Shown here one piece after another: positions 11,250 through 56,207 of a stretch of 64,000 nt of DNA. Below the pieces are notes generated by a model. It did no database searches and was not told where the DNA came from. It saw only the letters and a list, made by a program, of their open reading frames with translations. The stretch is from Trypanosoma brucei (taxonomy: Eukaryota). The position numbers and the translations under genes are program-made. Within the stretch, counting starts at the first letter, position 1; every line of letters begins with the position of its first letter. The stretch lies in contig CH464491.1 of NCBI GenBank assembly GCA_000002445.1, positions 2,048,001 to 2,112,000 of the forward strand. Reading direction: 5' to 3'.

Positions 11250-14200
11250 GTGAAGGAGGAAGAAACAGAAATTACTTGCTTTCAAATTTCGCTACATGCG
11301 GTATCGCTTGCTCGTAGCGCGCTAATGGAAGACTCTAACGAAGTTGCGTTACGGGGTTTGAGGACAGCGCCTGGAACGCGGCGTGCGAGTCCGCAAGGGG
11401 ACACTAAGCTCAATCTAGTGCCGGAGCCACCACTACCACGCACTGGTGCGTCGATGCTTACAATACCAGTGGTGAAGTTGCTCCACTGCGCGGTCCGTGA
11501 CGTCGTTGAGCAGCAAGCGCCTTCCCTCAAATGTAGTTTATATGACGATGAGGAGGTCACGAACGAAGTGGTCAACCATTTGTTGCATGACACCGCTGTG
11601 GACGGCGTCACGACCCTTGATGTGCTGACGGCGAAGTGGCGGCAGGTTCTCTCAGAATCTCTGAATGCCAATGGCACTGTTTCGGACGCGGAGCGCGCCA
11701 CGCTTCCAGTTACCCCAGGGCCTAGTGAGGCAGAGTGCAATGAGATTCTGGAGCCGGTCACCGACGCCGGTGTGATTTTGAGTCAAAGCCCAGCAAGTGT
11801 TAACGTGCTTCGCCTTGACTGTGATAGTGAACTCTCACTGGATGGTCTGCATACAGAAGATAGTCAGAACACCCATGCTGACGCCCATGAGTTTATTGAT
11901 GCTTGTTTAAATGGATGGTTAAAGGACGGTCACCTAGTTCCTGGCGAGAAAAGGAATGCATTCGTGAGTGCGCTTCGCGTTGTGTCAGACGCGGATAGCG
12001 ATGTGGTTGTGTCAGACAGTCATTGGGATTTCTGGAGGGGCTCCCTGCTGGCCTGTTTGGAGCAACCAACAATTGCTTGGGAAGCAGCAGACCTGATTGT
12101 AGCGTTTCTGTGCAGTCGCTGTTCATCGACGCAGAAGCTTCTTTTGGTAGAAAGTGTCACGAGGATGCTTCGACAGTACAGCCAACAAAACGAAAGTGGA
12201 AGATCACCAGAGGTCTTGTTGCACCTACTCCACAAGCTTGTGCTTCGCCTGGCGGGAGACATAGATTTGCTATTGGATGATGAATTGGGAGGTCTGTTTC
12301 ATCACGTTATCGAATCTGTGATTGAACACATCACTTACTTTGGGGCTGTTGATCCACAAGGGCAGTGGCTGAAAGAGCTTCTGGTGCGTCCAGCACTTAC
12401 CCGTCATGTTATTCGGCTGCCAGAGACTCAGCATGCCCTGGTGAGTAAGCTACTAGATGCTTTTCCCACGACTCATGCGGTGGGACTGACGCTGGTGATG
12501 TTGCCTTTGTGGGTGCAAAAACACAATACTAAGGGTATATTTGCCTCGTTGCTTTCGTGTGTGGTTAACGGGGTTATGACTGGGACTGTTCGGCGTGACA
12601 TGGTTGGAGATGCGTTAGTTTGTATTAGGCGTTGTGCTCGCGGCTTGCATTATTCCAGGCGCTATGAATATGTTAACCAGATTTGCAACATCCTTGCTAG
12701 CAGCGGTAGTGACACAAGAGTGGAGGACAAAAACTGTGGCAATGACCGGAGGTTGTGGCGGTTAGGTTTGCCGCTTCTCCTCGTTTTCTCAGTGCCATCC
12801 GGTCATGATTGTGACAAGGGCTACCGTCTTTTGCCAGGTCAACTGAGGCAACTGGAGAAATGCCTGCTTAGACGCACCGAGCTGTGGTCAGAGGAGTCTC
12901 CGGAAGATCGCGAAATCATTAGCTCTTTTTGGTGTGAAATGCTCCACTGGTACGCAGTGCAGCTGCGCAAGGTAGTGAAGCGTGTTGTAAAGACCGTGGG
13001 CAGCGGGGTTAGCCGATCAGCTGTACCATGGGATGAGAGACACCTGGTTTCCATCAGCACCGTTACTCCTGCTTGGCGTGAACTTGAGAATATTCTCACG
13101 AACAGGGGACGCCATCAACCTCCTGACTACACAACGGTCCTTCAGTGCATGTGTTCTCACAGTGTGCTTGCCACGTCTCCCCAGTATTTTCTTCAGCAGA
13201 ACGTTCAGGTCCCGCAGCGAGATCGATATGCTTTGTTAAATACGAAGCATGAAATTTGGTGGTTACTCATGCGGTGGTGCAGCAGCGCTCCGCTGCGTCA
13301 CGAGCTGTTTCTTGCGACCGGGAGGGTGCTTAAACTGCTCACTAATAGCGAAAGCACTATAAATGAGACCCTCCTCATAGTCCCAGTGGAGGAGTTGGAG
13401 GGGGAGGTGCAGGTTCTGCACACGATTCCGACGGAGGAAATGGAGAAGCGGCGAAGGATAGCGCTTTTTCAATCAATACGCCTATGGATAGCTGCGTTGA
13501 CGCCCCCAGTTGATACTACACCCTTAACCCGTTGGGATGTGGCTGGTGCATTCCTCCAGCAAATCAAGCGGCACTGGATAGACCGCGAGCAAGGCGACAC
13601 GTCAGCGCGTCTATCGTTTGGTGATGACTCTTTGCTTTTACTGCTCTGCGTATATACCATAGGTACATTGACAGGTGCCGTTCTCAATGGCAGTGGAACT
13701 CATCCACCGGACCTTGACAACGCGCTACGTCGAATATTGTTGGATCGTCGGGGCTTCGACCCCGTTCAGCAGCTTCTGTTGTATTTGACCACATGTGCTG
13801 ACTGCAGTGGTCTCACTGATATATTAGCCCATAGATTCGATGCGGTGAGCGAACCCCTTTGGCGAGTGGAGGAATACCGCAACGCCAAGCCAACAGTTAG
13901 TTGTTCACCACTTCCCGTGGGACAAAAAGAGTTGCACCTCTTCAAAAAACATGTTGGAGAGTCATTAGACCAAAGCTACTGTGCCTCTGATGGGTATTAC
14001 TCATCGGGGATGGAACAGGTTTTGATGTTAATCCTTCAGCTGCATGAGGGAAATATAGCTTCAGCAGCAGCCTCTTTGGGATCGTTTCCCCTATCAACGT
14101 GGGAAGCATACGGAGGTGTTAAGGAACTTTCAGCTAGAATTGTCGAATCCATACGTGAAACTCACCCACACATGGAGGGCCTCCTCCGTCTTCATGGTGT

Positions 14201-43573: not shown

Positions 43574-45289
43574 CTACGCTGCAAAGCGCATCCCACCTAT
43601 TTCTTCCCCAACCACAAAGAGGTCTTCCTCACCTGCATCTGGTACACACGGGAAGACATCCATTTCTTCGTACCTTTCTCTGTACTCCCCAACATGAGAA
43701 GCAGAAGGCATAGCTGAAGCACTTGCGCCTGTGGCCGGGGCTACAGTATGTCCATTTAAGGTGCCAATGAAAGTGAACCCCCGGACCCCGTTCGGTCGCT
43801 CTGCGACGCGAGACATCACTTCCACACCATCATTCGCCAGGGATACGGCGGGAGCAACCGCTTTTGATGTCTCGTGATGTGACTTAAGAGACCTTATGCC
43901 ATTTTGGCCCTTTCTTCTGACCTCAGCAAGCACCTCAGCAGGATACAAAAAACCATCATGCTCCGCTAGATTTGGTGAAGTCACCTGCGATGCGGCAGGG
44001 TTACAACACTGATGCGTGTTGCCTCGACCCGGCCGACCGAAGCGCTCTTCAGCAACTACGCAGCTATCACTGGACGTAGTTGAATTACTAGAAACATACT
44101 CATACCCCGAGGACCCCTCGTCATCAATAAGTAAGGATGGCCACGTTGTGAGTGTTGACGACTCCGAGTCACAACCTATACCATCACCACTATCAGAGAG
44201 AAGCACTACATCTCCGGTGCTGGGTTTCGGTGCCGTCCAGTCCTCGTCGTCATCTAAGAGCAACCGACGTCCCTGTACGACCGTTGTCGTAAGCGGCCGT
44301 GGCGATTTCGGTACTGATCTGCGGTGTCGCTTAGGTGGTGTTTCACACGGTGGTTTTGGCGCCTCGAACGATAACAACGCCTGTTCATTTGCGTCCTTGG
44401 TAACACTCGATCGGCTGCCTCCACGCACTGCTGTTTCCCTCCGAACTCCGGTTGAAGGGCGCGCGACAGGCGCAGGTACATCCACAGACGACATTGCCTT
44501 TATTTCATCCCAAAGGCGGTGCGCCTGCACACCCCTGTAAGTTCGGCCGTTGTAGTGTAACTGCCGTCGGCCCCTCACGGTGCTCCAGCTATGGGGAAAT
44601 GGCATGCCGTTTCGTTGCAGAGGAAGTTTAACACCTTTGCTGCTACCTTTGTTACCCCGATGACGAGTTGTGCGACTCACTGGCTTTTTGCCTGCTTTTT
44701 TGCTGCCTCGGCCTCGGTTATTTGAGGGTTGAGTCGACCTCCTACTCCTCCATTCGCCTTCAGCTACATGGCTTTCAGCGACAGTTGGTGAGAAACTCGT
44801 GACATTGTTACTTTTTCCGGAAGCTTCGGTGTCGATGGGGACCGCGTCCCACAAGACGGTATCTGACGGCTTTTCACTCACGCTGCGGACCGGCGGTCGT
44901 TGTGCCTTAGGAGGCACAGCAAACGGAGCCATAACATTGACCCCAAGTTCGCTCAGCCTAACAATTGCACCGCCGTACCGTCGTTGCTCCGGTGCTGTGG
45001 CTGTGGCGCCACCGTTGGCTTCAGCGCTAATGCCACTTACTGCCGGCGCGGTAGGTGCACCGATGGAAATTGGCGTAGGGTGTTGAGGAGGTGGAGAGTT
45101 CACACCCGTTGGGGGCGCCTGTCCAGCAGCAACCGAAAGCGGTCTAAACACCACGCGAAACCTCCCTGATGGTTTATCACACTCCATGACTAAACCTTCG
45201 GGAAGGCTCAAACCTAGACCTATCATATTGAAAGGAAGATGGGTAATGCAAATGTGAACAACATAATAGCAAGGTCCACACAACAACAT
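43574..45289 (-). CDS. hypothetical Pro/Ser/Arg-rich, largely disordered protein
   Basis: A 571 aa ORF on the PTU strand with low-complexity composition and an acidic 'LLIDDEGSSGYEYV' patch. The start is uncertain. Alternatives are 'MIGLGLS' and 'MECDKPSGRF'. Confidence 0.45.
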   Translation of the reverse strand: MLLCGPCYYVVHICITHLPFNMIGLGLSLPEGLVMECDKPSGRFRVVFRPLSVAAGQAPPTGVNSPPPQHPTPISIGAPTAPAVSGISAEANGGATATAPEQRRYGGAIVRLSELGVNVMAPFAVPPKAQRPPVRSVSEKPSDTVLWDAVPIDTEASGKSNNVTSFSPTVAESHVAEGEWRSRRSTQPSNNRGRGSKKAGKKPVSRTTRHRGNKGSSKGVKLPLQRNGMPFPHSWSTVRGRRQLHYNGRTYRGVQAHRLWDEIKAMSSVDVPAPVARPSTGVRRETAVRGGSRSSVTKDANEQALLSFEAPKPPCETPPKRHRRSVPKSPRPLTTTVVQGRRLLLDDDEDWTAPKPSTGDVVLLSDSGDGIGCDSESSTLTTWPSLLIDDEGSSGYEYVSSNSTTSSDSCVVAEERFGRPGRGNTHQCCNPAASQVTSPNLAEHDGFLYPAEVLAEVRRKGQNGIRSLKSHHETSKAVAPAVSLANDGVEVMSRVAERPNGVRGFTFIGTLNGHTVAPATGASASAMPSASHVGEYRERYEEMDVFPCVPDAGEEDLFVVGEEIGGMRFAA

Positions 45290-45599
45290 GCACCTTTCAC
45301 TACAACATCTTCACAATCCCTTAGCCATCAACAACAGGAGTCATTCGGTTTACGAGGGAATACAACCAACGTGCCAACGCATCAACATCCCCCAAACAAT
45401 GAAAAAAAAAAATTCAGCACTAACGAAAAATATTCCACCCCCAGGGAAAAAGATTGAGCCACAAAGCTACATCATTGAACAAGCACACAAACACTGCCAG
45501 TAAGCTCGCTGCTCACACAATTTAAACGAACCAAATTTGCTGCAGTAATTATAAAAAACGGCATTATAAAACAAACGATTCAAACACCTGCCAGTACAC

Positions 45600-47561
45600 T
45601 TACAGATCGTCCATGGGTTGTGGCTTGTCGCCTCCGCCGGCGGATTGGTAAGTCTTCTGGATGATGGGGTTGGTCACGCTCTGCAGAGTTTCCAGGGCAG
45701 TTTTGTACTCCTCCTTTTCGGCGTTCGGATTTTCGTCAAGGAAGCGGATCGCCTCCGCAACAGCGGTCTCCACTGCAGCCTTGTCATTGGGGTCAAGTTT
45801 CCCACCAAGCTTATCCTTATCGTTCACTTGGTTGCGTAGGGAATACGCAACGCTCTCCAGCGAGTTACGCGCATCCACACGCTCGCGCACCTTGCGGTCC
45901 TCGTCCTCGAACTCTGCCGCTTCGCGCACCATACGCTCAATCTCCTCCTCGCTCAGGCGACCCTTGTCGTTGGTGATGGTGATCTCTTCCTTCTTTCCAG
46001 ACGACTTGTCCATAGCGCTCACCTGCAGGATGCTGTTCTCGTCGACGTCAAATGTCACTTCGATTTGTGGCACACCACGCGCGGCAGGAGGAATTCCCGA
46101 CAACTCGAATTTGCCCAGGAGGCGGTTATCCTTTGTCAGCTGGCGCTCACCCTCATACACTTGGATAAGCACACCCGGCTGGTTGTCCGCATGGGTAGAA
46201 AAGACCTGACTCTTCTTGGTGGGGATCTGTGTGTTACGCTCGATGAGTTTTGTCATGACACCACCTACAGTTTCAATACCAAGCGACAGTGGGATCACAT
46301 CTACAAGCACAACGCGCCCGCCAACCTCGCTTTCACCGGTTAGCACCGCAGCTTGCACAGCGGCACCATATGCTACGGCTTCATCGGGGTTAATACCACG
46401 GTTCAGTTCCTTCCCACCGAAGAAGTCACTGATCAGTTGTTGTACCTTCGGCACACGTGTGGATCCACCAACGAGCACAATCTCGTGGATGTCACTCTTC
46501 TTCAGCTTCGCATCCTCCAGCACACGTTGCACGGGCACGAGTGTCCCCTTGAAGAGGTCCATGTTCAGCTCCTCAAACTTCGCACGTGTGATTTTCTCGC
46601 TGAAATCGAAGCCCTCCGTAAGGCTGTCCACCTCCACACGCGCCTCGGGATGAGACGACAGCTGTCGCTTCGCAGCCTCACATGCCTTGCGAAGACGTGC
46701 CAGTGCCTTTTGGTCCTTACTGATGTCAACATTCTTTTTCTTCTTCAGCATGTCCACAAAGTGTCGCATCATGTTGTTATCAAAGTCCTCACCACCAAGG
46801 TGCGTATCACCGTTTGTCGCCACAACTTCGAAGAAGCCCTCATCGATTGTCAGCAGTGACACATCAAAGGTACCACCACCAAGATCGAACACCAGGATAT
46901 TCTTCTCACCGGCTTTGTTTAGCCCATATGCGATGGCGGCTGCGGTGGGCTCATTGATGATGCGCACTACGTTCAAACCGGCGATGGTCCCAGCATCCTT
47001 TGTCGACTGCCGTTGTGCGTCATTGAAGTACGCAGGTACCGTTACAACAGCGTTTTTCACTTTCTCGCCAAGGTACGTTTCTGCAATTTCCTTCATCTTC
47101 TGCAGCACCATGGCACTGATCTCTTCTGGTGTGAACTGTTTCTTTTTCCCACCCACCATCACTTGTACCTTCGGCTTCCCGTCGCGGTCCGCAATGACCT
47201 CATACGACAGCAGTTTCTTGTCAGCCTGCACTGCCGCATCCGTGTACTTGCGGCCAATCAGCCTCTTGATGGTGTAGATTGTATTATGCGGATTCTGTGG
47301 AAGCTGATTCTTCGCACCGTCACCGATCAGCCGCTCTGTGTCGGTAAAGGCGACGACGGAAGGTGTGATGCGGTTACCCATCTCGTTCGGGATGATATGC
47401 ACATCACCCTTCTGCCACACACCCACAACGGAGTATGTTGTGCCGAGGTCGATGCCCACGCATGGTGCTTCCACCTTGCCGCCACTTTCGGGTGCTGCTG
47501 AGACGGCTGCAACCGTCACAGTCAGGAACACCGCTGCAGTGGTCAGCCACATCCTCGACAT
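45600..47561 (-). CDS. BiP: BiP/GRP78 (ER-lumenal Hsp70), copy 1
   Basis: Signal peptide '[22 protein letters not shown]'. Hsp70 signatures 'IDLGTTYS' and 'DLGGGTFD' are present. The C-terminal ER-retention signal 'MDDL' matches the published T. brucei BiP retention motif. Confidence 0.95.
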
Positions 47562-47659
47562 CGGGAGGGGGATTATCTTGAACTTAATATTAGTGTTAGG
47601 TAAGTAGGTTTGTGTGTTTTAGTATGCTTAGCTTATCTTTCCAAAACAACGCGAAACGT

Positions 47660-47790
47660 GAAAATATGTGGAGAGGAGGTGTGGTGGGGCGATGAAAAGG
47701 GACAAATAGGGAAAAGGAAATGGTAAAACGCAGATGGCACACGGAAAGGGCAAGGCGGAAGAAGGGGTCGCCTCCAGTGCTGCCATGGGG
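47660..47790 (-). promoter_or_regulatory. polypyrimidine tract / trans-splice acceptor region upstream of BiP copy 1
   Basis: Read on the minus strand, this is a run of about 120 nt of C/T-rich sequence (the plus strand reads 'ggaggtgtggtggggcgatgaaaagggacaaatagggaaaagg...'). It lies about 100-230 nt upstream of the BiP ATG. The identical tract occurs at 55950-56080 upstream of copy 2. Confidence 0.5.
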
Positions 47791-47960
47791 CTCCTGCAAG
47801 TAGAGGTTATGTGCTCTCTAGATAAAAATGCGCGTGAAGTCTGCCGCTACGGGGCAATACGCACCACAGAATTTACATAATTAAAACGAGGGATGTAAGT
47901 CCTTCCTGTACACCCAAAACTGTAGAAGTTCCAAAAAAAAATGTGCAGAGTGGGGCTTCC

Positions 47961-48725
47961 CTACCACTCACGCGTTGGTAAGGAGCACTTTGGGGGAAGC
48001 GACATGCCGTGCGGTGGTGCTTGGTCCTCAGTATAGTAACGTCCCGTTCGCTGTTGGTAATGTGTTGTGCTTTCGTAGATGAGTGGAAGCCGAAGGTAGG
48101 TATTGTCTACCGCTGCGGGTGCGCACCACGGCTCCGTCACCGTTCCGTTGTATTCAGATCCACCTGTTGGTGGTATGCGATCTGTGTGGTTCCCAGGGTG
48201 AGCAATTCTCCGCTCGGGGTTAGCGGTGTCGAGTGGAAGCTGCTTGTCCATTATGTCACCTGTGGAAAACGGTTGTTTCCCCTCTGCAGAATTGATGCAG
48301 GTTCCGATCGTTTCTCCTTGTTGTCCATGGTCGCCGACAGTGCCTGCCAGTCCGCTGCCGAGCTGCAAACCTCCGTCATTGCCGTGGGTACCAGCTTTAA
48401 CGCCTTCAACAGCGTCAACACCGCCGTTCCCATCACCTTCCGCTCCAGAAGTCTCTCTTATAGCACCGTCTCCAGAACTTCCAATAGGAACTCTGCTGTA
48501 ACGCGACCTCCCAAACAAATCCGGCACGTCTCTTACCTTCGGATTGCCAAACGGATCAATTAAATCACCTTTCTTTGACGATGTGTACGTGCTGCGCGGG
48601 GCAAAGGTCCCCCCAGGAACGGGGTTAATCCAATAAGCTCCGCCGTGGTTGATAAATACATCACGATCTACTGAGGCCGTTTGTGAAGCGGGTACAAATG
48701 ACATTTCTAAAAGCCTTCTGCTCAA
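47961..48725 (-). CDS. hypothetical Gly-rich protein
   Basis: A 254 aa ORF on the PTU strand between BiP copy 1 and the AN1 gene. It is Gly/Asp-rich ('GDGNGGVDAVEGVKAGTHGNDGG') with no recognised domain. Confidence 0.35.
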   Translation of the reverse strand: MSRRLLEMSFVPASQTASVDRDVFINHGGAYWINPVPGGTFAPRSTYTSSKKGDLIDPFGNPKVRDVPDLFGRSRYSRVPIGSSGDGAIRETSGAEGDGNGGVDAVEGVKAGTHGNDGGLQLGSGLAGTVGDHGQQGETIGTCINSAEGKQPFSTGDIMDKQLPLDTANPERRIAHPGNHTDRIPPTGGSEYNGTVTEPWCAPAAVDNTYLRLPLIYESTTHYQQRTGRYYTEDQAPPHGMSLPPKCSLPTREW

Positions 48726-48956
48726 TGAATCTAGAAGAGGGATAAGGACGAAAGCAGTGCATTTTAGAGACCCTCACAGTATCGAAAGCATTATAGAAAA
48801 GTGTGCATGCGAAACTGCAGTGACGATGATACAACAGTTGTGCACATTCCTTAGTACTTTGTACACCAGCAGATACTTATCCCTTTTTCTACTGGTGCAA
48901 GGGGAACATTCCACCGTAAACTGCATCATCTTCAAAACATTTGCATCGGCATCGCC

Positions 48957-49241
48957 CTACTTTTTCTTGATTGGCTTCTTTTGCCGTTGTGCGGCCAGTT
49001 CTTCTCTGCGCCGTGTCAACCGTGCCTTGGCGTCGTCTAAGCCGATATGCTTTCGCTGCTGCCGTTGCTCCGCTGCGTCGGCAGTTGCCTTCCGTTGTGC
49101 CACATTCTTAGCCCTGTCACCGCAGCCATGCACTTCTGGGAGCAGGTGAGACGTACACATGCGCTGGCTGCAATGCTCACAGGCCGGCAGCGCGGTATAT
49201 GTCAGGTTTGAGCACCCTTTGAATGCACAAACAACGGACAT
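48957..49241 (-). CDS. small AN1-type zinc-finger protein
   Basis: 'CAFKGCSNLTYTALPACEHCSQRMCTSHLLPEVHGC' fits zf-AN1 spacing C-x4-C-x10-C-x2-C-x4-C-x2-H-x5-H-x-C. A basic Lys/Arg-rich tail follows. Confidence 0.65.
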   Translation of the reverse strand: MSVVCAFKGCSNLTYTALPACEHCSQRMCTSHLLPEVHGCGDRAKNVAQRKATADAAEQRQQRKHIGLDDAKARLTRRREELAAQRQKKPIKKK

Positions 49242-49652
49242 ATTCCTTTAGCGTGCACAAACTTAATTAGATGTGTTGTATAACCGCAGGTGCCACGCTA
49301 GCAAGTTTTGGAAGAAAGCGAAAGAAGATGTTTGGTTGATTAACAGAGCGAAAAGAAGATGCAGCATAGAATCCAACAACACACGGTTCCTTATCCACCA
49401 GCAGCGAGTGACGCCGCTCCCTTTGTGGAGCCACATCCGAACCGTATGGCTTTATCTAACCACAACTAAAGTAAACCGACTCTGAGCAAAATCCTCCCTT
49501 GGGGGAAAACGCTACCTTCCTTAGCACCAATGCCATGCGGGTTGCTCTCCAAGTCGACCGAGGCACAACCAGCAGTCACTTTTTCCCTCCCTTCTCTCCC
49601 CCCCTACATTTGCCCCCAAAGGCCCCCTGTCCTTTTTCCTTTCCATGTGGTA

Positions 49653-50252
49653 TCATGAAGAGTCACAGAGTCCCGTGTACCTGTTCGCTTGGTTATTCAT
49701 CAACAATGCAATGATAAGCCCATAGAGGCCCAGGGCCTCGGAAAAGATCAACATGAGCACCATGGCCACGAAAACCTGATCCTGCTTGCCATAAGCCCGG
49801 GTGGTTGTGTCACCCACCACACCGATGGAAAGCCCTGCGGCAAGCGAGGCGAGTCCCGCCGCCATTCCCGCGCCCAAATGCAGGTTGGCAGAGAAGGTAG
49901 AATAGGAGTAGAGCTCCGTTTTGATGTTGTTGTTTATTATAACTGCCACGATCAAACCATAGATGCCGAGGATGCCAGCCATAACAACTGGAACGATGCC
50001 GCGCATGATCTTCTCGGGAGCCAGAAGTCCTAGTTGGGCTAATCCGACGCCTGACTTTGCAGCACCGTAGGCAGAGCCCAGATTAGCAAAGATAAGAGCA
50101 ACAGCCACACCCAGAGAGCCGAAAAAGCCAGCGCTTTGTGGGTACATTCGGGCCAAACAGGCCTCTTTCCGAGTAGTATTGCCGTCACCGACCGTAGCAA
50201 AGACAGTGGTGACACATATCACGGAGAGTAAACCTATAAAAGAGTATTTCAT
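49653..50252 (-). CDS. V-type H+-ATPase proteolipid subunit (c/c''-type, about 200 aa)
   Basis: Proteolipid motifs 'GSAYGAAKSGVGLAQLG' and 'IVPVVMAGILGIYGLIVAVII', plus a second repeat 'GAGMAAGLASLAAGLSIG'. Start placed at the internal Met 'MKYSF' because the upstream ORF part lacks hydrophobic or proteolipid character. Confidence 0.8.
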   Translation of the reverse strand: MKYSFIGLLSVICVTTVFATVGDGNTTRKEACLARMYPQSAGFFGSLGVAVALIFANLGSAYGAAKSGVGLAQLGLLAPEKIMRGIVPVVMAGILGIYGLIVAVIINNNIKTELYSYSTFSANLHLGAGMAAGLASLAAGLSIGVVGDTTTRAYGKQDQVFVAMVLMLIFSEALGLYGLIIALLMNNQANRYTGLCDSS

Positions 50253-50902
50253 AGGTGCAGCAAACGACGCACAACCTAAAGTGAGCAATGTTCGCGCATA
50301 CAAAGATAACAGTGGAGACAATAAAGGGGAAGAGATATGATAAAGATGAAGGTTGCGCGAACTGCCGCTCGCAGAAAAAAGGGGGTGGAGACGCAAAACC
50401 TCTTGCAGCATGCACACGGAAGGTAGACAATCCACGAATAGTCAGATGGCCTTGGCACAACAAAAGCAAAGTACTGTCCAACTCTCCTTGTGCGAAATGC
50501 CCAACTAAAAGGGATGAGAAGCAGTCGCGATAAATGTGGTGTCGCGACGCGTTTCCTTAACGTTAGTTAGCATAACTCACCCATCCTCCGCGACGCAATC
50601 TCCAAAAAAAAAACGGCTACCCGCATAAATACACATCAACCAAACAACACTCCAGCCAGATGGATGTGATACGCATGAAAAAAGTACGCGATTTAGTGCG
50701 ACTTATAATTGATATTGAAAACAAGTCACGCAAACACAAACTGTTAAGAACACGGCACAGATTGCATCTGGCTGAGTAAAGGGCTCATCGCACTCTCAAC
50801 TCTTGCCGATACTTCCCTGTCGACTCGAAGATAATCCCTAGCCGCTGGCCGCGTTAAGGTGGAATACTGTGAGTTAAGGAGCCGGTCTCCACGTCCAAAT
50901 CC

Positions 50903-51859
50903 CTAACGATAAATTGCTCCCTAAACTATGATTCGCTAAAGCACAAAGCAGAGTGATAGGGAGGAGAGTTAAGGTGGAATGACACACGCTGCTCACGACA
51001 AGATGTAAGAGAAAAACACGCTACACCGCGGTGCGGCACAGCTCACAGGGTGATAGGGTGAGAAGGATTTCCTACAAATATAAAACCTGCGACACCAGTG
51101 AGAAAATGGGCTCTCTCACTTAGTTCAGTCGAGCGCTCACAAATAAAAAGAAATAAATAATCAAAACAAATAAAATAGAAAAATTGATGAATCATATATA
51201 TATTTATATGTTTTCGTTAATTAAAAAAAATCCCTCCTGTACATGGTATGTCGTGCCGCCATCCTCTCCCGGGGTCATTTTCGTATCACCAGTGGATGAC
51301 AGAACATTATAATGTCATTGCCGAGTGCCTCCAGGTAAAACTTACTGATAGTTTATTCATTCTTAGAAACCTGCAATTGCAACAGACACCCACCCCAACA
51401 TCATTGTGATAGCACCAACCGGAGCCATAGGACCCACTTGTTTGCCAGGGACTCCCAAGCAGATGGCATAGACGGTACCACAAAAGATCGTTGTTCCGGC
51501 GAACAATAACACGAAACTGCGGTTGAGCCACCTGGCGGCGCTGCTTTCCGGCTCGGCAATCTTGAGGGCAGCAAAGATAGCCATCATCGCGGCAGTGTGA
51601 ATAAGGTTAAATTGGACAGCGTGGTCCCATGCGAGCTTCAACTTATCAGAAAGGTTAGGGTCCAGCCAGTGCGAGCCGGCGGCTGCGGCCACGACACCGA
51701 TGAGACCGAGGACGCCAATGAGGATCATCGGAGTATCTCTTACTTTGCCCATGGTTGTAGTGTTACTTGTTTTTAGGTTTGGTGTGTTCAATAACGATAA
51801 TTAACCTTGCTGTTACTTCCATTAGTTCAAACAAAATGGAAGGAGAGAAAGAATAATAC
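50903..51859. repeat. direct repeat unit A (957 bp) carrying DUF423 gene copy 1
   Basis: Near-identical to 52089-53045 (offset 1186 bp). The identity break-points are at 50902/52088 and 51860/53046. Confidence 0.85.
51363..51791 (-). CDS. DUF423/TMEM256-like small membrane protein, copy 1
   Basis: 'FAGTTIFCGTVYAICLG' and 'APVGAITMMLGWVSVAIAGF' parallel human TMEM256 'ASGTTLFCTSFYYQALSG' and 'APAGGTLLLLGWLALAL'. There are four predicted TM helices. Confidence 0.7.
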   Translation of the reverse strand: MNTPNLKTSNTTTMGKVRDTPMILIGVLGLIGVVAAAAGSHWLDPNLSDKLKLAWDHAVQFNLIHTAAMMAIFAALKIAEPESSAARWLNRSFVLLFAGTTIFCGTVYAICLGVPGKQVGPMAPVGAITMMLGWVSVAIAGF

Positions 51860-52088
51860 CCGTCAGGCCCTCGAGGAATGCATATACGTTGGGGTACTGG
51901 CTGATAAAAGTAAGGAAAATGCATAGTAAATGATGCAGACACTGATCACTAGATGTTAATCACGTAGCCCTAATATCCGAATACCTCCTCGTTAACATCA
52001 ATTGCACTGCTGTGAAAAAGATAAATCTACCGCCAAATCCAAAGAACTGACCGACACAACAAGAAATTTGGTTTTCGCATAAAACCCT

Positions 52089-53045
52089 CTAACGATAAAT
52101 TGCTCCCTAAACTATGATTCGCTAAAGCACAAAGCAGAGTGATAGGGAGGAGAGTTAAGGTGGAATGACACACGCTGCTCACGACAAGATGTAAGAGAAA
52201 AACACGCTACACCGCGGTGCGGCACGGCTCACAGGGTGATAGGGTGAGAAGGATTTCCTACAAATATAAAACCTGCGACACCAGTGAGAAAATGGGCCCT
52301 CTCACTTAGTTCAGTCGAGCGCTCACAAATAAAAAGAAATAAATAATCAAAACAAATAAAATAGAAAAATTGATGAATCATATATATATTTATATGTTTT
52401 CGTTAATTAAAAAAAATCCCTCCTGTACATGGTATGTCGTGCCGCCATCCTCTCCCGGGGTCATTTTCGTATCACCAGTGGATGACAGAACATTATAATG
52501 TCATTGCCGAGTGCCTCCAGGTAAAACTTACTGATAGTTTATTCATTCTTAGAAACCTGCAATTGCAACAGACACCCACCCCAACATCATTGTGATACCA
52601 CCAACCGGAGCGAAGTGCCCCACTTGTTTGCCAGGGACTCCCAAGCAGATGGCATAGACGGTACCGCAAAAGATCGTTGTTCCGGCGAACAATAACACGA
52701 AACTGCGGTTGAGCCACCTGGCGGCGCTGCTTTCCGGCTCGGCAATCTTGAGGGCAGCAAAGATAGCCATCATCGCGGCAGTGTGAATAAGGTTAAATTG
52801 GACAGCGTGGTCCCATGCGAGCTTCAACTTATCAGAAAGGTTAGGGTCCAGCCAGTGCGAGCCGGCGGCTGCGGCCACGACACCGATGAGACCGAGGACG
52901 CCAATGAGGATCATCGGAGTATCTCTTACTTTGCCCATGGTTGTAGTGTTACTTGTTTTTAGGTTTGGTGTGCTCAATAACGATAATTAACCTTGCTGTT
53001 ACTTCCATTAGTTCAAACAAAATGGAAGGAGAGAAAGAATAATAC
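52089..53045. repeat. direct repeat unit B (957 bp) carrying DUF423 gene copy 2
   Basis: Near-identical to 50903-51859. The two units are separated by a 229 bp unique spacer (51860-52088). Confidence 0.85.
52549..52977 (-). CDS. DUF423/TMEM256-like small membrane protein, copy 2
   Basis: It differs from copy 1 at only a few residues (N2S, and 'GPMAPVGAI' versus 'GHFAPVGGI'). Confidence 0.7.
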   Translation of the reverse strand: MSTPNLKTSNTTTMGKVRDTPMILIGVLGLIGVVAAAAGSHWLDPNLSDKLKLAWDHAVQFNLIHTAAMMAIFAALKIAEPESSAARWLNRSFVLLFAGTTIFCGTVYAICLGVPGKQVGHFAPVGGITMMLGWVSVAIAGF

Positions 53046-53873
53046 TTCCTGTATAACTATTTCTTTCCATTTAAAACAAATACAAATAGGCGCACACACC
53101 CAGCACAAACTTTTCTTCTTGGCTAACCAGAGGCAAAAAATTATCAAATTTTGTTGTTTTTTTTCCCGAACCTCCTCAAATATAAATTTCAGAGAAATGG
53201 TTGCCGTATGCAGAGCAGGCACCTTAATTTTCCTTTTTTTTTTAATTTCCCACCTCCTTTCCGCAAGACGAAGAACTGGTATACGTACCTTAGACATCTC
53301 TTAGGATCACTTCGTCTGAAGGGCACGAACAAAACTAGGAAAAGTAGAGTTAGAAAAAAAAGATGGCCAGTTAAATTTTCTTTGAACCACCGGTGTGCCC
53401 TTCGTTATTCTTCCTCCGTGTTCCAGCACTCTGTGGTTTGATTACAGAGGTCAGAGAACAGGTATGCCGCACATTTTATTAACCAATCTTTCAGTTCAGT
53501 CGTCTCCCATTCAATTTTTCTCTACCAATCTCACCCTATTACCCACTTCAATTGCTTACCTTTTACCTTCATATCCCCATGACACCGGTGATGCCTTTGT
53601 ATTGTTTGCTGCTTTCGCAGAAAGTAGATTAAACATCTATTTGACACACGAAGAAAATAGCACGTGCTTCAACTAAAGTCAGTAAGTTGAGAATAAACAG
53701 CAGCCACAATTACAAGCAACTCCATTTCTTCCCACCATTCATCGACCAGTATCGCACACCAAGCGCTTCCAACCACTCTTCTTGAACAACTGCAGGCCAA
53801 CCATTCTACCATATCCACTCTGCACTTCAATAAGTATACAAAGCAAAAAAAAATAATAATAATAACCACTCAC

Positions 53874-56207
53874 ACACCTGCCAGTACACTTACAGATCGT
53901 CCATGGGTTGTGGCTTGTCGCCTCCGCCGGCGGATTGGTAAGTCTTCTGGATGATGGGGTTGGTCACGCTCTGCAGAGTTTCCAGGGCAGTTTTGTACTC
54001 CTCCTTTTCGGCGTTCGGATTTTCGTCAAGGAAGCGGATCGCCTCCGCAACAGCGGTCTCCACTGCAGCCTTGTCATTGGGGTCAAGTTTCCCACCAAGC
54101 TTATCCTTATCGTTCACTTGGTTGCGTAGGGAATACGCAACGCTCTCCAGCGAGTTACGCGCATCCACACGCTCGCGCACCTTGCGGTCCTCGTCCTCGA
54201 ACTCTGCCGCTTCGCGCACCATACGCTCAATCTCCTCCTCGCTCAGGCGACCCTTGTCGTTGGTGATGGTGATCTCTTCCTTCTTTCCAGACGACTTGTC
54301 CATAGCGCTCACCTGCAGGATGCTGTTCTCGTCGACGTCAAATGTCACTTCGATTTGTGGCACACCACGCGCGGCAGGAGGAATTCCCGACAACTCGAAT
54401 TTGCCCAGGAGGCGGTTATCCTTTGTCAGCTGGCGCTCACCCTCATACACTTGGATAAGCACACCCGGCTGGTTGTCCGCATGGGTAGAAAAGACCTGAC
54501 TCTTCTTGGTGGGGATCTGTGTGTTACGCTCGATGAGTTTTGTCATGACACCACCTACAGTTTCAATACCAAGCGACAGTGGGATCACATCTACAAGCAC
54601 AACGCGCCCGCCAACCTCGCTTTCACCGGTTAGCACCGCAGCTTGCACAGCGGCACCATATGCTACGGCTTCATCGGGGTTAATACCACGGTTCAGTTCC
54701 TTCCCACCGAAGAAGTCACTGATCAGTTGTTGTACCTTCGGCACACGTGTGGATCCACCAACGAGCACAATCTCGTGGATGTCACTCTTCTTCAGCTTCG
54801 CATCCTCCAGCACACGTTGCACGGGCACGAGTGTCCCCTTGAAGAGGTCCATGTTCAGCTCCTCAAACTTCGCACGTGTGATTTTCTCGCTGAAATCGAA
54901 GCCCTCCGTAAGGCTGTCCACCTCCACACGCGCCTCGGGATGAGACGACAGCTGTCGCTTCGCAGCCTCACATGCCTTGCGAAGACGTGCCAGTGCCTTT
55001 TGGTCCTTACTGATGTCAACATTCTTTTTCTTCTTCAGCATGTCCACAAAGTGTCGCATCATGTTGTTATCAAAGTCCTCACCACCAAGGTGCGTATCAC
55101 CGTTTGTCGCCACAACTTCGAAGAAGCCCTCATCGATTGTCAGCAGTGACACATCAAAGGTACCACCACCAAGATCGAACACCAGGATATTCTTCTCACC
55201 GGCTTTGTTTAGCCCATATGCGATGGCGGCTGCGGTGGGCTCATTGATGATGCGCACTACGTTCAAACCGGCGATGGTCCCAGCATCCTTTGTCGACTGC
55301 CGTTGTGCGTCATTGAAGTACGCAGGTACCGTTACAACAGCGTTTTTCACTTTCTCGCCAAGGTACGTTTCTGCAATTTCCTTCATCTTCTGCAGCACCA
55401 TGGCACTGATCTCTTCTGGTGTGAACTGTTTCTTTTTCCCACCCACCATCACTTGTACCTTCGGCTTCCCGTCGCGGTCCGCAATGACCTCATACGACAG
55501 CAGTTTCTTGTCAGCCTGCACTGCCGCATCCGTGTACTTGCGGCCAATCAGCCTCTTGATGGTGTAGATTGTATTATGCGGATTCTGTGGAAGCTGATTC
55601 TTCGCACCGTCACCGATCAGCCGCTCTGTGTCGGTAAAGGCGACGACGGAAGGTGTGATGCGGTTACCCATCTCGTTCGGGATGATATGCACATCACCCT
55701 TCTGCCACACACCCACAACGGAGTATGTTGTGCCGAGGTCGATGCCCACGCATGGTGCTTCCACCTTGCCGCCACTTTCGGGTGCTGCTGAGACGGCTGC
55801 AACCGTCACAGTCAGGAACACCGCTGCAGTGGTCAGCCACATCCTCGACATCGGGAGGGGGATTATCTTGAACTTAATATTAGTGTTAGGTAAGTAGGTT
55901 TGTGTGTTTTAGTATGCTTAGCTTATCTTTCCAAAACAACGCGAAACGTGAAAATATGTGGAGAGGAGGTGTGGTGGGGCGATGAAAAGGGACAAATAGG
56001 GAAAAGGAAATGGTAAAACGCAGATGGCACACGGAAAGGGCAAGGCGGAAGAAGGGGTCGCCTCCAGTGCTGCCATGGGGCTCCTGCAAGTAGAGGTTAT
56101 GTGCTCTCTAGATAAAAATGCGCGTGAAGTCTGCCGCTACGGGGCAATACGCACCACAGAATTTACATAATTAAAACGAGGGATGTAAGTCCTTCCTGTA
56201 TACCCAA
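53874..56207. repeat. 2334 bp duplicated segment B (BiP copy 2 unit)
   Basis: See segment A. Confidence 0.9.
53890..55851 (-). CDS. BiP: BiP/GRP78 (ER-lumenal Hsp70), copy 2, identical to copy 1
   Basis: The 653 aa translation is identical to copy 1, including the signal peptide and the C-terminal MDDL. Confidence 0.95.

Follow-up and report, generated by a model that had tools for sequence, protein, structure and literature searches.

A dispersed pair of BiP genes in Trypanosoma brucei, near-identical over 2.3 kb and very probably homogenised by gene conversion

The window analysed here is a 64-kb stretch of the Trypanosoma brucei genome (contig CH464491.1, positions 2,048,001 to 2,112,000), in which the gene for the chaperone BiP/GRP78 occurs twice on the minus strand. 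The two copies are part of a near-identical 2.3-kb repeat and are separated by five genes unrelated to BiP. We consider it highly probable that the pair goes back to an old dispersed duplication, which has been homogenised by intrachromosomal gene conversion and whose edges are the limits of homology. The same layout is found in T. vivax, where the two copies again resemble each other and not their T. brucei orthologues. The units and coding sequences (CDS) are as follows, all positions being those of the window.

45584..47917, minus strand: downstream BiP repeat unit (Tb11.02.5450 / Tb927.11.7460), between the Gly-rich gene and the downstream 571-residue gene
45600..47561, minus strand: BiP/GRP78 CDS, downstream copy, 653 residues, C-terminus MDDL
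53874..56207, minus strand: upstream BiP repeat unit (Tb11.02.5500 / Tb927.11.7510), between the 374-residue gene and the DUF423 genes
53890..55851, minus strand: BiP/GRP78 CDS, upstream copy, 0 nucleotide differences from the downstream copy

Extent, edges and product of the repeat

The two units are each 2334 bp in length and lie at an offset of 8290; they are identical at 2333/2334 positions. The single mismatch (47911/56201) is located 6 nt inside the gene-upstream edge, and the longest exact run, 45584–47910, is 2327 bp long. Each unit contains 356 bp upstream of the gene, the 1962-bp CDS and 16 bp after the stop codon. The first-pass annotation, a model's reading of the letters, had given the same unit coordinates, gene content and flank sizes on both sides of the gene, and these were borne out by sequence comparison and Pfam. 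It had also claimed 100% identity, including the non-coding 5′ flank; the identity is indeed near-perfect, but owing to the one mismatch it is not strictly 100%. Self-comparison of the window, proposed there as a check, recovered the BiP repeat and found no scattered mismatches (1/2334). Self-BLAST of the whole 64-kb window gave matches for the BiP repeat and the DUF423 tandem only; Rfam and tRNA scans of the whole window returned no matches. Judged by its length, an exact repeat of 2.3 kb cannot have originated by chance.

Outside the repeat, the local alignment score of the 3′ flanks is 22 (shuffled sequences, 21.3 ± 2.5) and that of the 5′ flanks is also 22 (shuffled, 19.9 ± 2.4), both at chance level. 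Local alignment against shuffles found no residual homology on either side of the breakpoints, which would have been a sign of a larger original duplication. Because similarity drops to chance immediately outside the breakpoints, the sharp edges are best read as the limits of detectable homology. The breakpoints had been taken earlier to mark a conversion tract; they mark homology limits instead, and two further two-copy assemblies of the subgenus Trypanozoon have them at the same points as the window.

The encoded protein contains a full-length Hsp70 domain (PF00012, E=1.5e-252; residues 35–639 match profile positions 2–599 of 599, Pfam). Its N-terminal stretch of 24 residues is hydrophobic, as read from the translation, and its C-terminus is ...PQPMDDL. 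The MDDL tetrapeptide, present in 12/12 trypanosomatid sequences compared, is named in literature passages as T. brucei's signal for retention in the endoplasmic reticulum (ER). The protein is identical at 652/653 residues to AAC37174.1, BiP/GRP78 of Trypanosoma brucei brucei, and exactly identical to EAN79721.1 and EAN79726.1 of strain TREU927; T. b. gambiense and T. equiperdum have the exact protein as well. Across Trypanosoma the identity is 92–97%. In T. b. gambiense the second BiP (FN554974.1, 17098–19059) is annotated as 593 residues in length, starting from Met61 (CBH17746.1), and the DNA has an intact 653-residue open reading frame (ORF) identical to that of the window. Judged from this DNA, CBH17746.1 is an annotation inconsistency, not a truncation.

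Conserved layout and concerted evolution

In T. vivax (GCA_021307395.1, two contig sets), the gene order is acyl-CoA-synthetase-like, 374-residue homologue, BiP, DUF423, V-ATPase c, zf-AN1, Gly-rich, BiP, 571-residue homologue and 410-residue homologue. The T. vivax BiP repeat is 2311 bp in length with 99.65% identity, extending from −259 to +92 around the CDS. The comparison with this species had been suggested by the first-pass annotation; the intervening cassette is present, and the BiP copies are homogenised there too. Between the paralogues, the BiP CDS has 0 differences in T. brucei and 2 differences, both synonymous, in T. vivax. Between the two species, 356/1953 aligned sites (18%) and 45% of the third positions differ. 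For the 356-bp 5′ part of the unit, no similarity between T. brucei and T. vivax could be detected (z=1.2), and only 1 base differs between the T. brucei paralogues; the two T. vivax copies have a handful of differences in their 5′ part, mostly confined to a single copy. Since the positions are conserved in both species and the paralogues are closer than the orthologues at silent and non-coding sites, the pair is most readily understood as a case of concerted evolution, in which each copy resembles its own partner and not its orthologue. Both BiP positions and the cassette genes are common to T. brucei and T. vivax; the duplication would therefore already have been present in their common ancestor.

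The order is V-ATPase c, zf-AN1, Gly-rich, BiP and downstream genes in T. grayi; zf-AN1, Gly-rich, copine gene and BiP in L. major; and Gly-rich, BiP and 571-residue homologue on the T. congolense contig. Because BiP lies downstream of the Gly-rich gene in all three, the copy at 45600–47561 appears to occupy the ancestral position, and the copy at 53890–55851 to be the derived one. The L. major copine-domain gene (OU755562.1, 7101–8627), located between the Gly-rich gene and BiP, is not there in the trypanosome loci examined. The contigs of T. conorhini and T. rangeli end 2–3 kb upstream of BiP, so that copy number is not readable from them. The two T. cruzi assemblies (GCA_002219105.2 and GCA_003177105.1) differ in BiP copy number, one having three copies and the other two, with periods of 4.5 and 8.9 kb. 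The T. cruzi repeat units are longer than 3.6 kb, with Peptidase_M8 (GP63) genes upstream; no homologue of the T. brucei cassette genes was found in the T. cruzi BiP spacer, whose larger ORFs are without Pfam domain.

Within the T. brucei group, GCA_000210295.1 (T. b. gambiense) and GCA_003543875.1 (Trypanozoon) each contain two BiP units whose edges match those of the window and whose flanks are unique to each unit. We aligned seven BiP units from four genomes of this group. At 7 sites (columns 290, 353, 388, 1529, 1739, 1922 and 2051), a variant is present in both copies of a genome and missing from other genomes. Most of the copy-specific differences are no more than about 80 bp away from an edge (columns 94, 164, 2372 and 2413). 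In T. vivax, 5 sites separate the two contig sets in both BiP copies, and the sole substitution that consistently splits upstream from downstream copies is near the 5′ edge, at column 122; several single-copy differences are internal (columns 288, 289, 1632 and 2034). The pattern fits conversion that would be efficient in the interior of the unit and fade at the limits of homology. The units of GCA_003543875.1 also carry single-base indels at columns 316–317 and 2048–2049, one of which breaks the frame of the downstream copy; they are probably sequencing errors rather than marks of a pseudogene.

On these data, we propose that BiP was duplicated before the split of T. brucei and T. vivax, and that the second copy was placed beyond the cassette genes. 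Repeated gene conversion would since have kept a 2.3-kb segment, made up of 5′ intergenic and untranslated sequence, the CDS and a few bases past the stop codon, identical within each species while it diverged between species. The presumed route is homologous-recombination repair with the other BiP copy as template, a mechanism that we infer. Conversion could not pass the limits of homology, and each copy would thereby retain its own 3′ untranslated region (UTR). The shared 5′ part, for its part, would supply the same trans-splice acceptor to both BiP copies and the same poly(A) region to their different neighbours.

A very recent duplication in T. brucei, too young to have diverged and needing no gene conversion, would also account for near-perfect identity that includes non-coding sequence, and for sharp edges; the first-pass annotation had left it open beside gene conversion. 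It is nevertheless very improbable: T. vivax, despite the 18% divergence of its BiP CDS, also has two copies in this layout and between these neighbours, the breakpoints of T. b. gambiense and of a further Trypanozoon assembly are identical to those of the window, and the variants that separate strains sit in both copies. A recent segmental duplication was ruled out, as the arrangement is present in T. b. gambiense, the other Trypanozoon assembly and T. vivax. The other option, gene conversion leading to concerted evolution, agrees with the near-identical paralogues, the diverged orthologues and the variants common to both copies. Purifying selection on a highly expressed essential chaperone could be thought to keep the copies identical without any exchange, and the 92–97% protein identity across Trypanosoma does indicate strong selection on the protein. 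Such selection is an extremely improbable cause of the identity at silent and non-coding sites, given that 45% of third positions differ between species compared to 0 and 2 synonymous differences between paralogues, and that the 5′ non-coding part is unalignable between species and has one mismatch between paralogues.

A further alternative is that a single BiP gene was wrongly expanded to two in the reference assembly. One scaffold, CZPT02001289.1 of GCA_001457755.2, does have one BiP and no cassette; it carries a run of 10 N at 12839–12848, exactly where the cassette is expected, which argues that this scaffold has itself collapsed. By the order of its sequences, the scaffold joins the upstream BiP unit straight to the sequence downstream of the second BiP via the 10 N. 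The single-BiP scaffold is accordingly best explained, at sequence level, as an assembly collapse at the repeat. Both copies, in different unique flanks, are present in two other T. brucei-group assemblies and in the two T. vivax contig sets, and TREU927 has a separate annotation for each of the two genes (EAN79721.1 and EAN79726.1), which the literature also describes, so that a wrong expansion is hardly credible. Because the two-copy layout and the same breakpoints recur in two independent T. brucei-group assemblies, the pair is, as far as assemblies can tell, not an artefact.

Several points weigh against old duplication followed by gene conversion. Conversion is read indirectly, from assembled consensus sequences, and assemblers could homogenise the interior of a repeat, where reads are anchored only near the unique flanks; shared variants could thereby be overcounted, and the crowding of differences near the edges exaggerated. 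Both GCA_003543875.1 and GCA_021307395.1 are taken to be long-read assemblies. Four of the shared-variant sites are common to T. b. gambiense (GCA_000210295.1) and GCA_003543875.1, and these may represent one old haplotype rather than separate recent conversions. No second BiP copy was found in the fragmentary T. congolense assembly, in which the sole contig with the protein is 3.9 kb long and no further search was made. The T. cruzi array, with its two to three copies and a different spacer, may or may not go back to the same event as the salivarian duplication, so that the latter is dated no further back than the ancestor that T. brucei and T. vivax have in common.

RNA processing signals and the genes between the copies

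The repeat carries RNA processing signals on its 5′ side and stops short of the mapped BiP poly(A) site on its 3′ side. The features concerned are:

47562..47917 (twin 55852..56207), minus strand: shared 5′ non-coding part of the repeat, holding a poly(A) site at 47809, a polypyrimidine tract and an AG
45342..45599, minus strand: mapped 3′ UTR of the downstream BiP copy, 258 nt, of which only the first 16 nt (45599–45584) are common to both copies
52978..53889, minus strand: 912-bp stretch from the upstream BiP stop to the next DUF423 ORF, containing the 3′ UTR of the upstream copy and unique past the first 16 nt

Predominant, experimentally mapped poly(A) sites (PAS) on chr11 are listed in Table S13 of Kolev 2010 (PMC2936537) for three of the genes: Tb11.02.5450 (PAS 2093342, 3′ UTR 258 nt, window 45342), Tb11.02.5460 (PAS 2095809, 152 nt, window 47809) and Tb11.02.5490 (PAS 2100257, 292 nt, window 52257). 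After subtraction of 2,048,000, the published sites lie exactly 258, 152 and 292 nt past the stops at 45600, 47961 and 52549, respectively; this fixed the gene ids and places the window at chr11 2,048,001–2,112,000 of strain TREU927.

Read along the gene strand, the shared 356 bp contain the poly(A) site of the Gly-rich gene, then a predicted polypyrimidine tract (47767–47743) and then the first AG after it (47638–47637). This AG predicts a BiP 5′ UTR of ∼75 nt. In trypanosomes, trans-splicing of a gene is coupled to polyadenylation of the preceding gene, and the spacing of the poly(A) site, the tract and the AG fits such coupling. Through the repeat, both BiP copies have one and the same splice acceptor region. 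Their two different upstream neighbours would likewise share a poly(A) site region, which is mapped for the Gly-rich gene only (47809). The 5′ region aligns between T. brucei and T. congolense (z=7.1), the sole non-coding pair that does.

The 3′ side is different. For the downstream BiP copy, the poly(A) site (45342) is located 242 nt outside the repeat edge. The first-pass annotation had held that the repeat copies both trans-splicing and polyadenylation signals; this is right for the polypyrimidine tract and splice acceptor of BiP but not for BiP's own poly(A) site, the one inside the repeat being that of the upstream neighbour. Because the BiP poly(A) site lies beyond the repeat and the 3′ flanks are without homology, the two BiP mRNAs should have unrelated 3′ UTRs with 16 nt in common. 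The 912-bp stretch that follows the upstream copy is bounded by a DUF423 ORF listed from TTG, with the likely ATG 39 nt further on; it has a UAUUUUUU motif at +35 and a polypyrimidine tract near +851. Of the two 3′ flanks, only that of the upstream copy contains the UAUUUUUU motif. Downstream, the poly(A) site 45342 is only 53 nt ahead of the first ATG of the next ORF (43574–45289, the 571-residue gene). With 45342 and 45289 so closely spaced, either the processing signals of both genes overlap or the 571-residue gene starts further in.

The position of the stop-side edge allows a further reading, in which the homogenised copies and the edge 16 nt past the stop codon are held by selection, and the two 3′ UTRs serve different post-transcriptional programmes (stage, stress). 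The unrelated 3′ UTRs with their unequal space (mapped 258 nt versus somewhere within the 912-bp stretch) are in its favour, as are the UAUUUUUU motif of the upstream copy and the T. vivax tract, which also ends soon after the stop codon, at +92. Set against this, neutral erosion of homology also predicts an edge near the stop codon. The 3′ flanks are without cross-species conservation that would suggest functional elements: among T. brucei, T. congolense and T. vivax, no 3′ UTR conservation clearly above shuffles was found (best z=3.1, with a raw score below the shuffle maximum), the intergenic DNA being saturated. No expression data separating the two copies were found either. Kolev 2010 (PMC2936537) pools the abundance of the two BiP genes (15.7 RNAs per cell) and lists a poly(A) site for Tb11.02.5450 only, the gene ids are absent from the supplements of Fadda 2014 and Jensen 2014, and a literature text search for two BiP genes with different UTRs gave no match. 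We regard selection on the edge as possible but doubtful. The fuller proposal is rather unlikely, namely that conversion has held the copies identical across the 6-kb spacer while the stop-side edge was maintained, so that one protein comes from two mRNAs with unrelated 3′ UTRs, regulated by stage or ER load. If it were true, differential 3′ UTRs would give BiP a tunable supply in an organism which, in passages of Field et al. 2010 (PMC2797082), is reported to lack a conventional transcriptional unfolded-protein response. A regulatory difference between the two 3′ UTRs is thus conjectural, and a two-fold BiP dosage from two copies is a reasonable expectation.

The five genes between the copies span 6 kb and, like BiP, belong to one minus-strand run. 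Polycistronic transcription is the rule in T. brucei, and the run around BiP is assumed to be a single polycistronic transcription unit. The first-pass annotation had listed a Gly-rich ORF, a zf-AN1 gene, a V-ATPase proteolipid gene and two DUF423 genes, and Pfam confirmed this cassette:

47961..48725, minus strand: Gly-rich conserved gene Tb11.02.5460, no Pfam domain; 3′ UTR of 152 nt, terminating within the BiP repeat
48957..49241, minus strand: zf-AN1 gene, 94 residues (PF01428, E=8.5e-9), conserved in T. vivax, T. grayi and L. major
49653..50435, minus strand: V-ATPase proteolipid gene (ATP-synt_C, Pfam), coordinates being mechanical ORF limits
50897..53045, minus strand: tandem pair of DUF423 genes (Pfam), ORFs 51363–51791 and 52549–52977, the second being Tb11.02.5490

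In T. vivax, T. congolense, T. grayi and L. major, the Gly-rich gene has homologues that are 39–53% identical. The V-ATPase proteolipid ORF is 260 residues long if read from a GTG; similarity to T. vivax and T. grayi starts only at residues 45–62, and in other assemblies the gene has been called at lengths between 164 and 252 residues. Because conservation begins near residue 62 and the gene calls vary, the start is uncertain, and the true one is probably internal to the listed ORF. For the DUF423 genes, the probable ATG is located 13 codons into the ORF, giving 129 residues. Their tandem consists of two 965-bp units that are 98.9% identical, with a period of 1186 bp. These adjoining genes are less alike than the BiP copies 8 kb apart; their products differ at 4 amino acids, 3 of which are close to the C-terminus. 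The number of DUF423 genes varies by assembly: GCA_000210295.1 has 1, the window 2 and GCA_003543875.1 3. The accessions EAN79721 to EAN79726 leave room for four genes between the BiP copies, versus the five conserved ORFs present. One of the zf-AN1, V-ATPase c or other DUF423 genes is probably missing from the early annotation, the 94-residue zf-AN1 gene being the likeliest.

Relation to known systems

Annotation and literature already cover the gene pair and the identity of its members, and the finding is ordinary and largely known. Field et al. 2010 (PMC2797082) treated the same gene pair, and passages of that paper report the two BiP ORFs as identical; those passages hold no account of the non-coding identity, the 3′ UTRs, the T. 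vivax layout or concerted evolution. Added here are exactly how far the identity reaches into non-coding sequence, the difference between the 3′ UTRs and the conserved T. vivax layout.

In T. brucei, BiP serves as the standard marker of the ER, of which it is the main chaperone; its tagging, knockout or quantification faces four alleles at two loci. Only the 3′ UTRs, from 17 nt past the stop codon, tell the two genes apart; reads in the CDS and the 5′ UTR are unavoidably multi-mapping.

The T. brucei PGKB and PGKC genes are neighbouring paralogues with coding regions homogenised by conversion and with distinct 3′ UTRs that drive stage-specific expression. They are the model for a regulatory reading of the BiP pair; the PGK proteins, however, have different targeting and functions, in contrast to the two identical BiP proteins. 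Gene conversion reportedly also occurs between mammalian Hsp70 paralogues. These are Hsp70-family duplicates homogenised like BiP, but they are cytosolic, heat-inducible and promoter-regulated, and belong to another lineage. Calreticulin (Tb927.4.5010 / Tb927.8.7410) is likewise an ER chaperone with two identical ORFs in T. brucei. Different from the BiP genes, which are 8 kb apart on one strand, the calreticulin copies are located on different chromosomes, in the chromosome 4/8 duplicon (PMC2212663).

The closest comparison is with the tandem gene arrays of T. brucei, for which Jackson 2007 (PMC1855330) described concerted evolution, citing gene conversion as the cause and dosage as a proposed benefit; BiP is not mentioned in that paper. 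Like those arrays, the BiP genes are same-strand duplicates whose CDS, and parts of whose non-coding flanks, are identical, which is attributable to gene conversion. Unlike them, the BiP copies do not adjoin each other: they are separated by five unrelated genes, the 3′ flanks are unrelated and there is no repeated intergenic spacer, so that the layout in the window is that of a dispersed duplicate and not of a tandem array. According to Jackson 2007 (PMC1855330), copies split off by unrelated genes with their own UTRs usually escape homogenisation and keep cross-species orthology. The BiP pair is the opposite, being still homogenised across five genes. It opens no new question, and it provides a clean small case of concerted evolution across intervening genes, contrary to the general pattern of T. 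brucei arrays.

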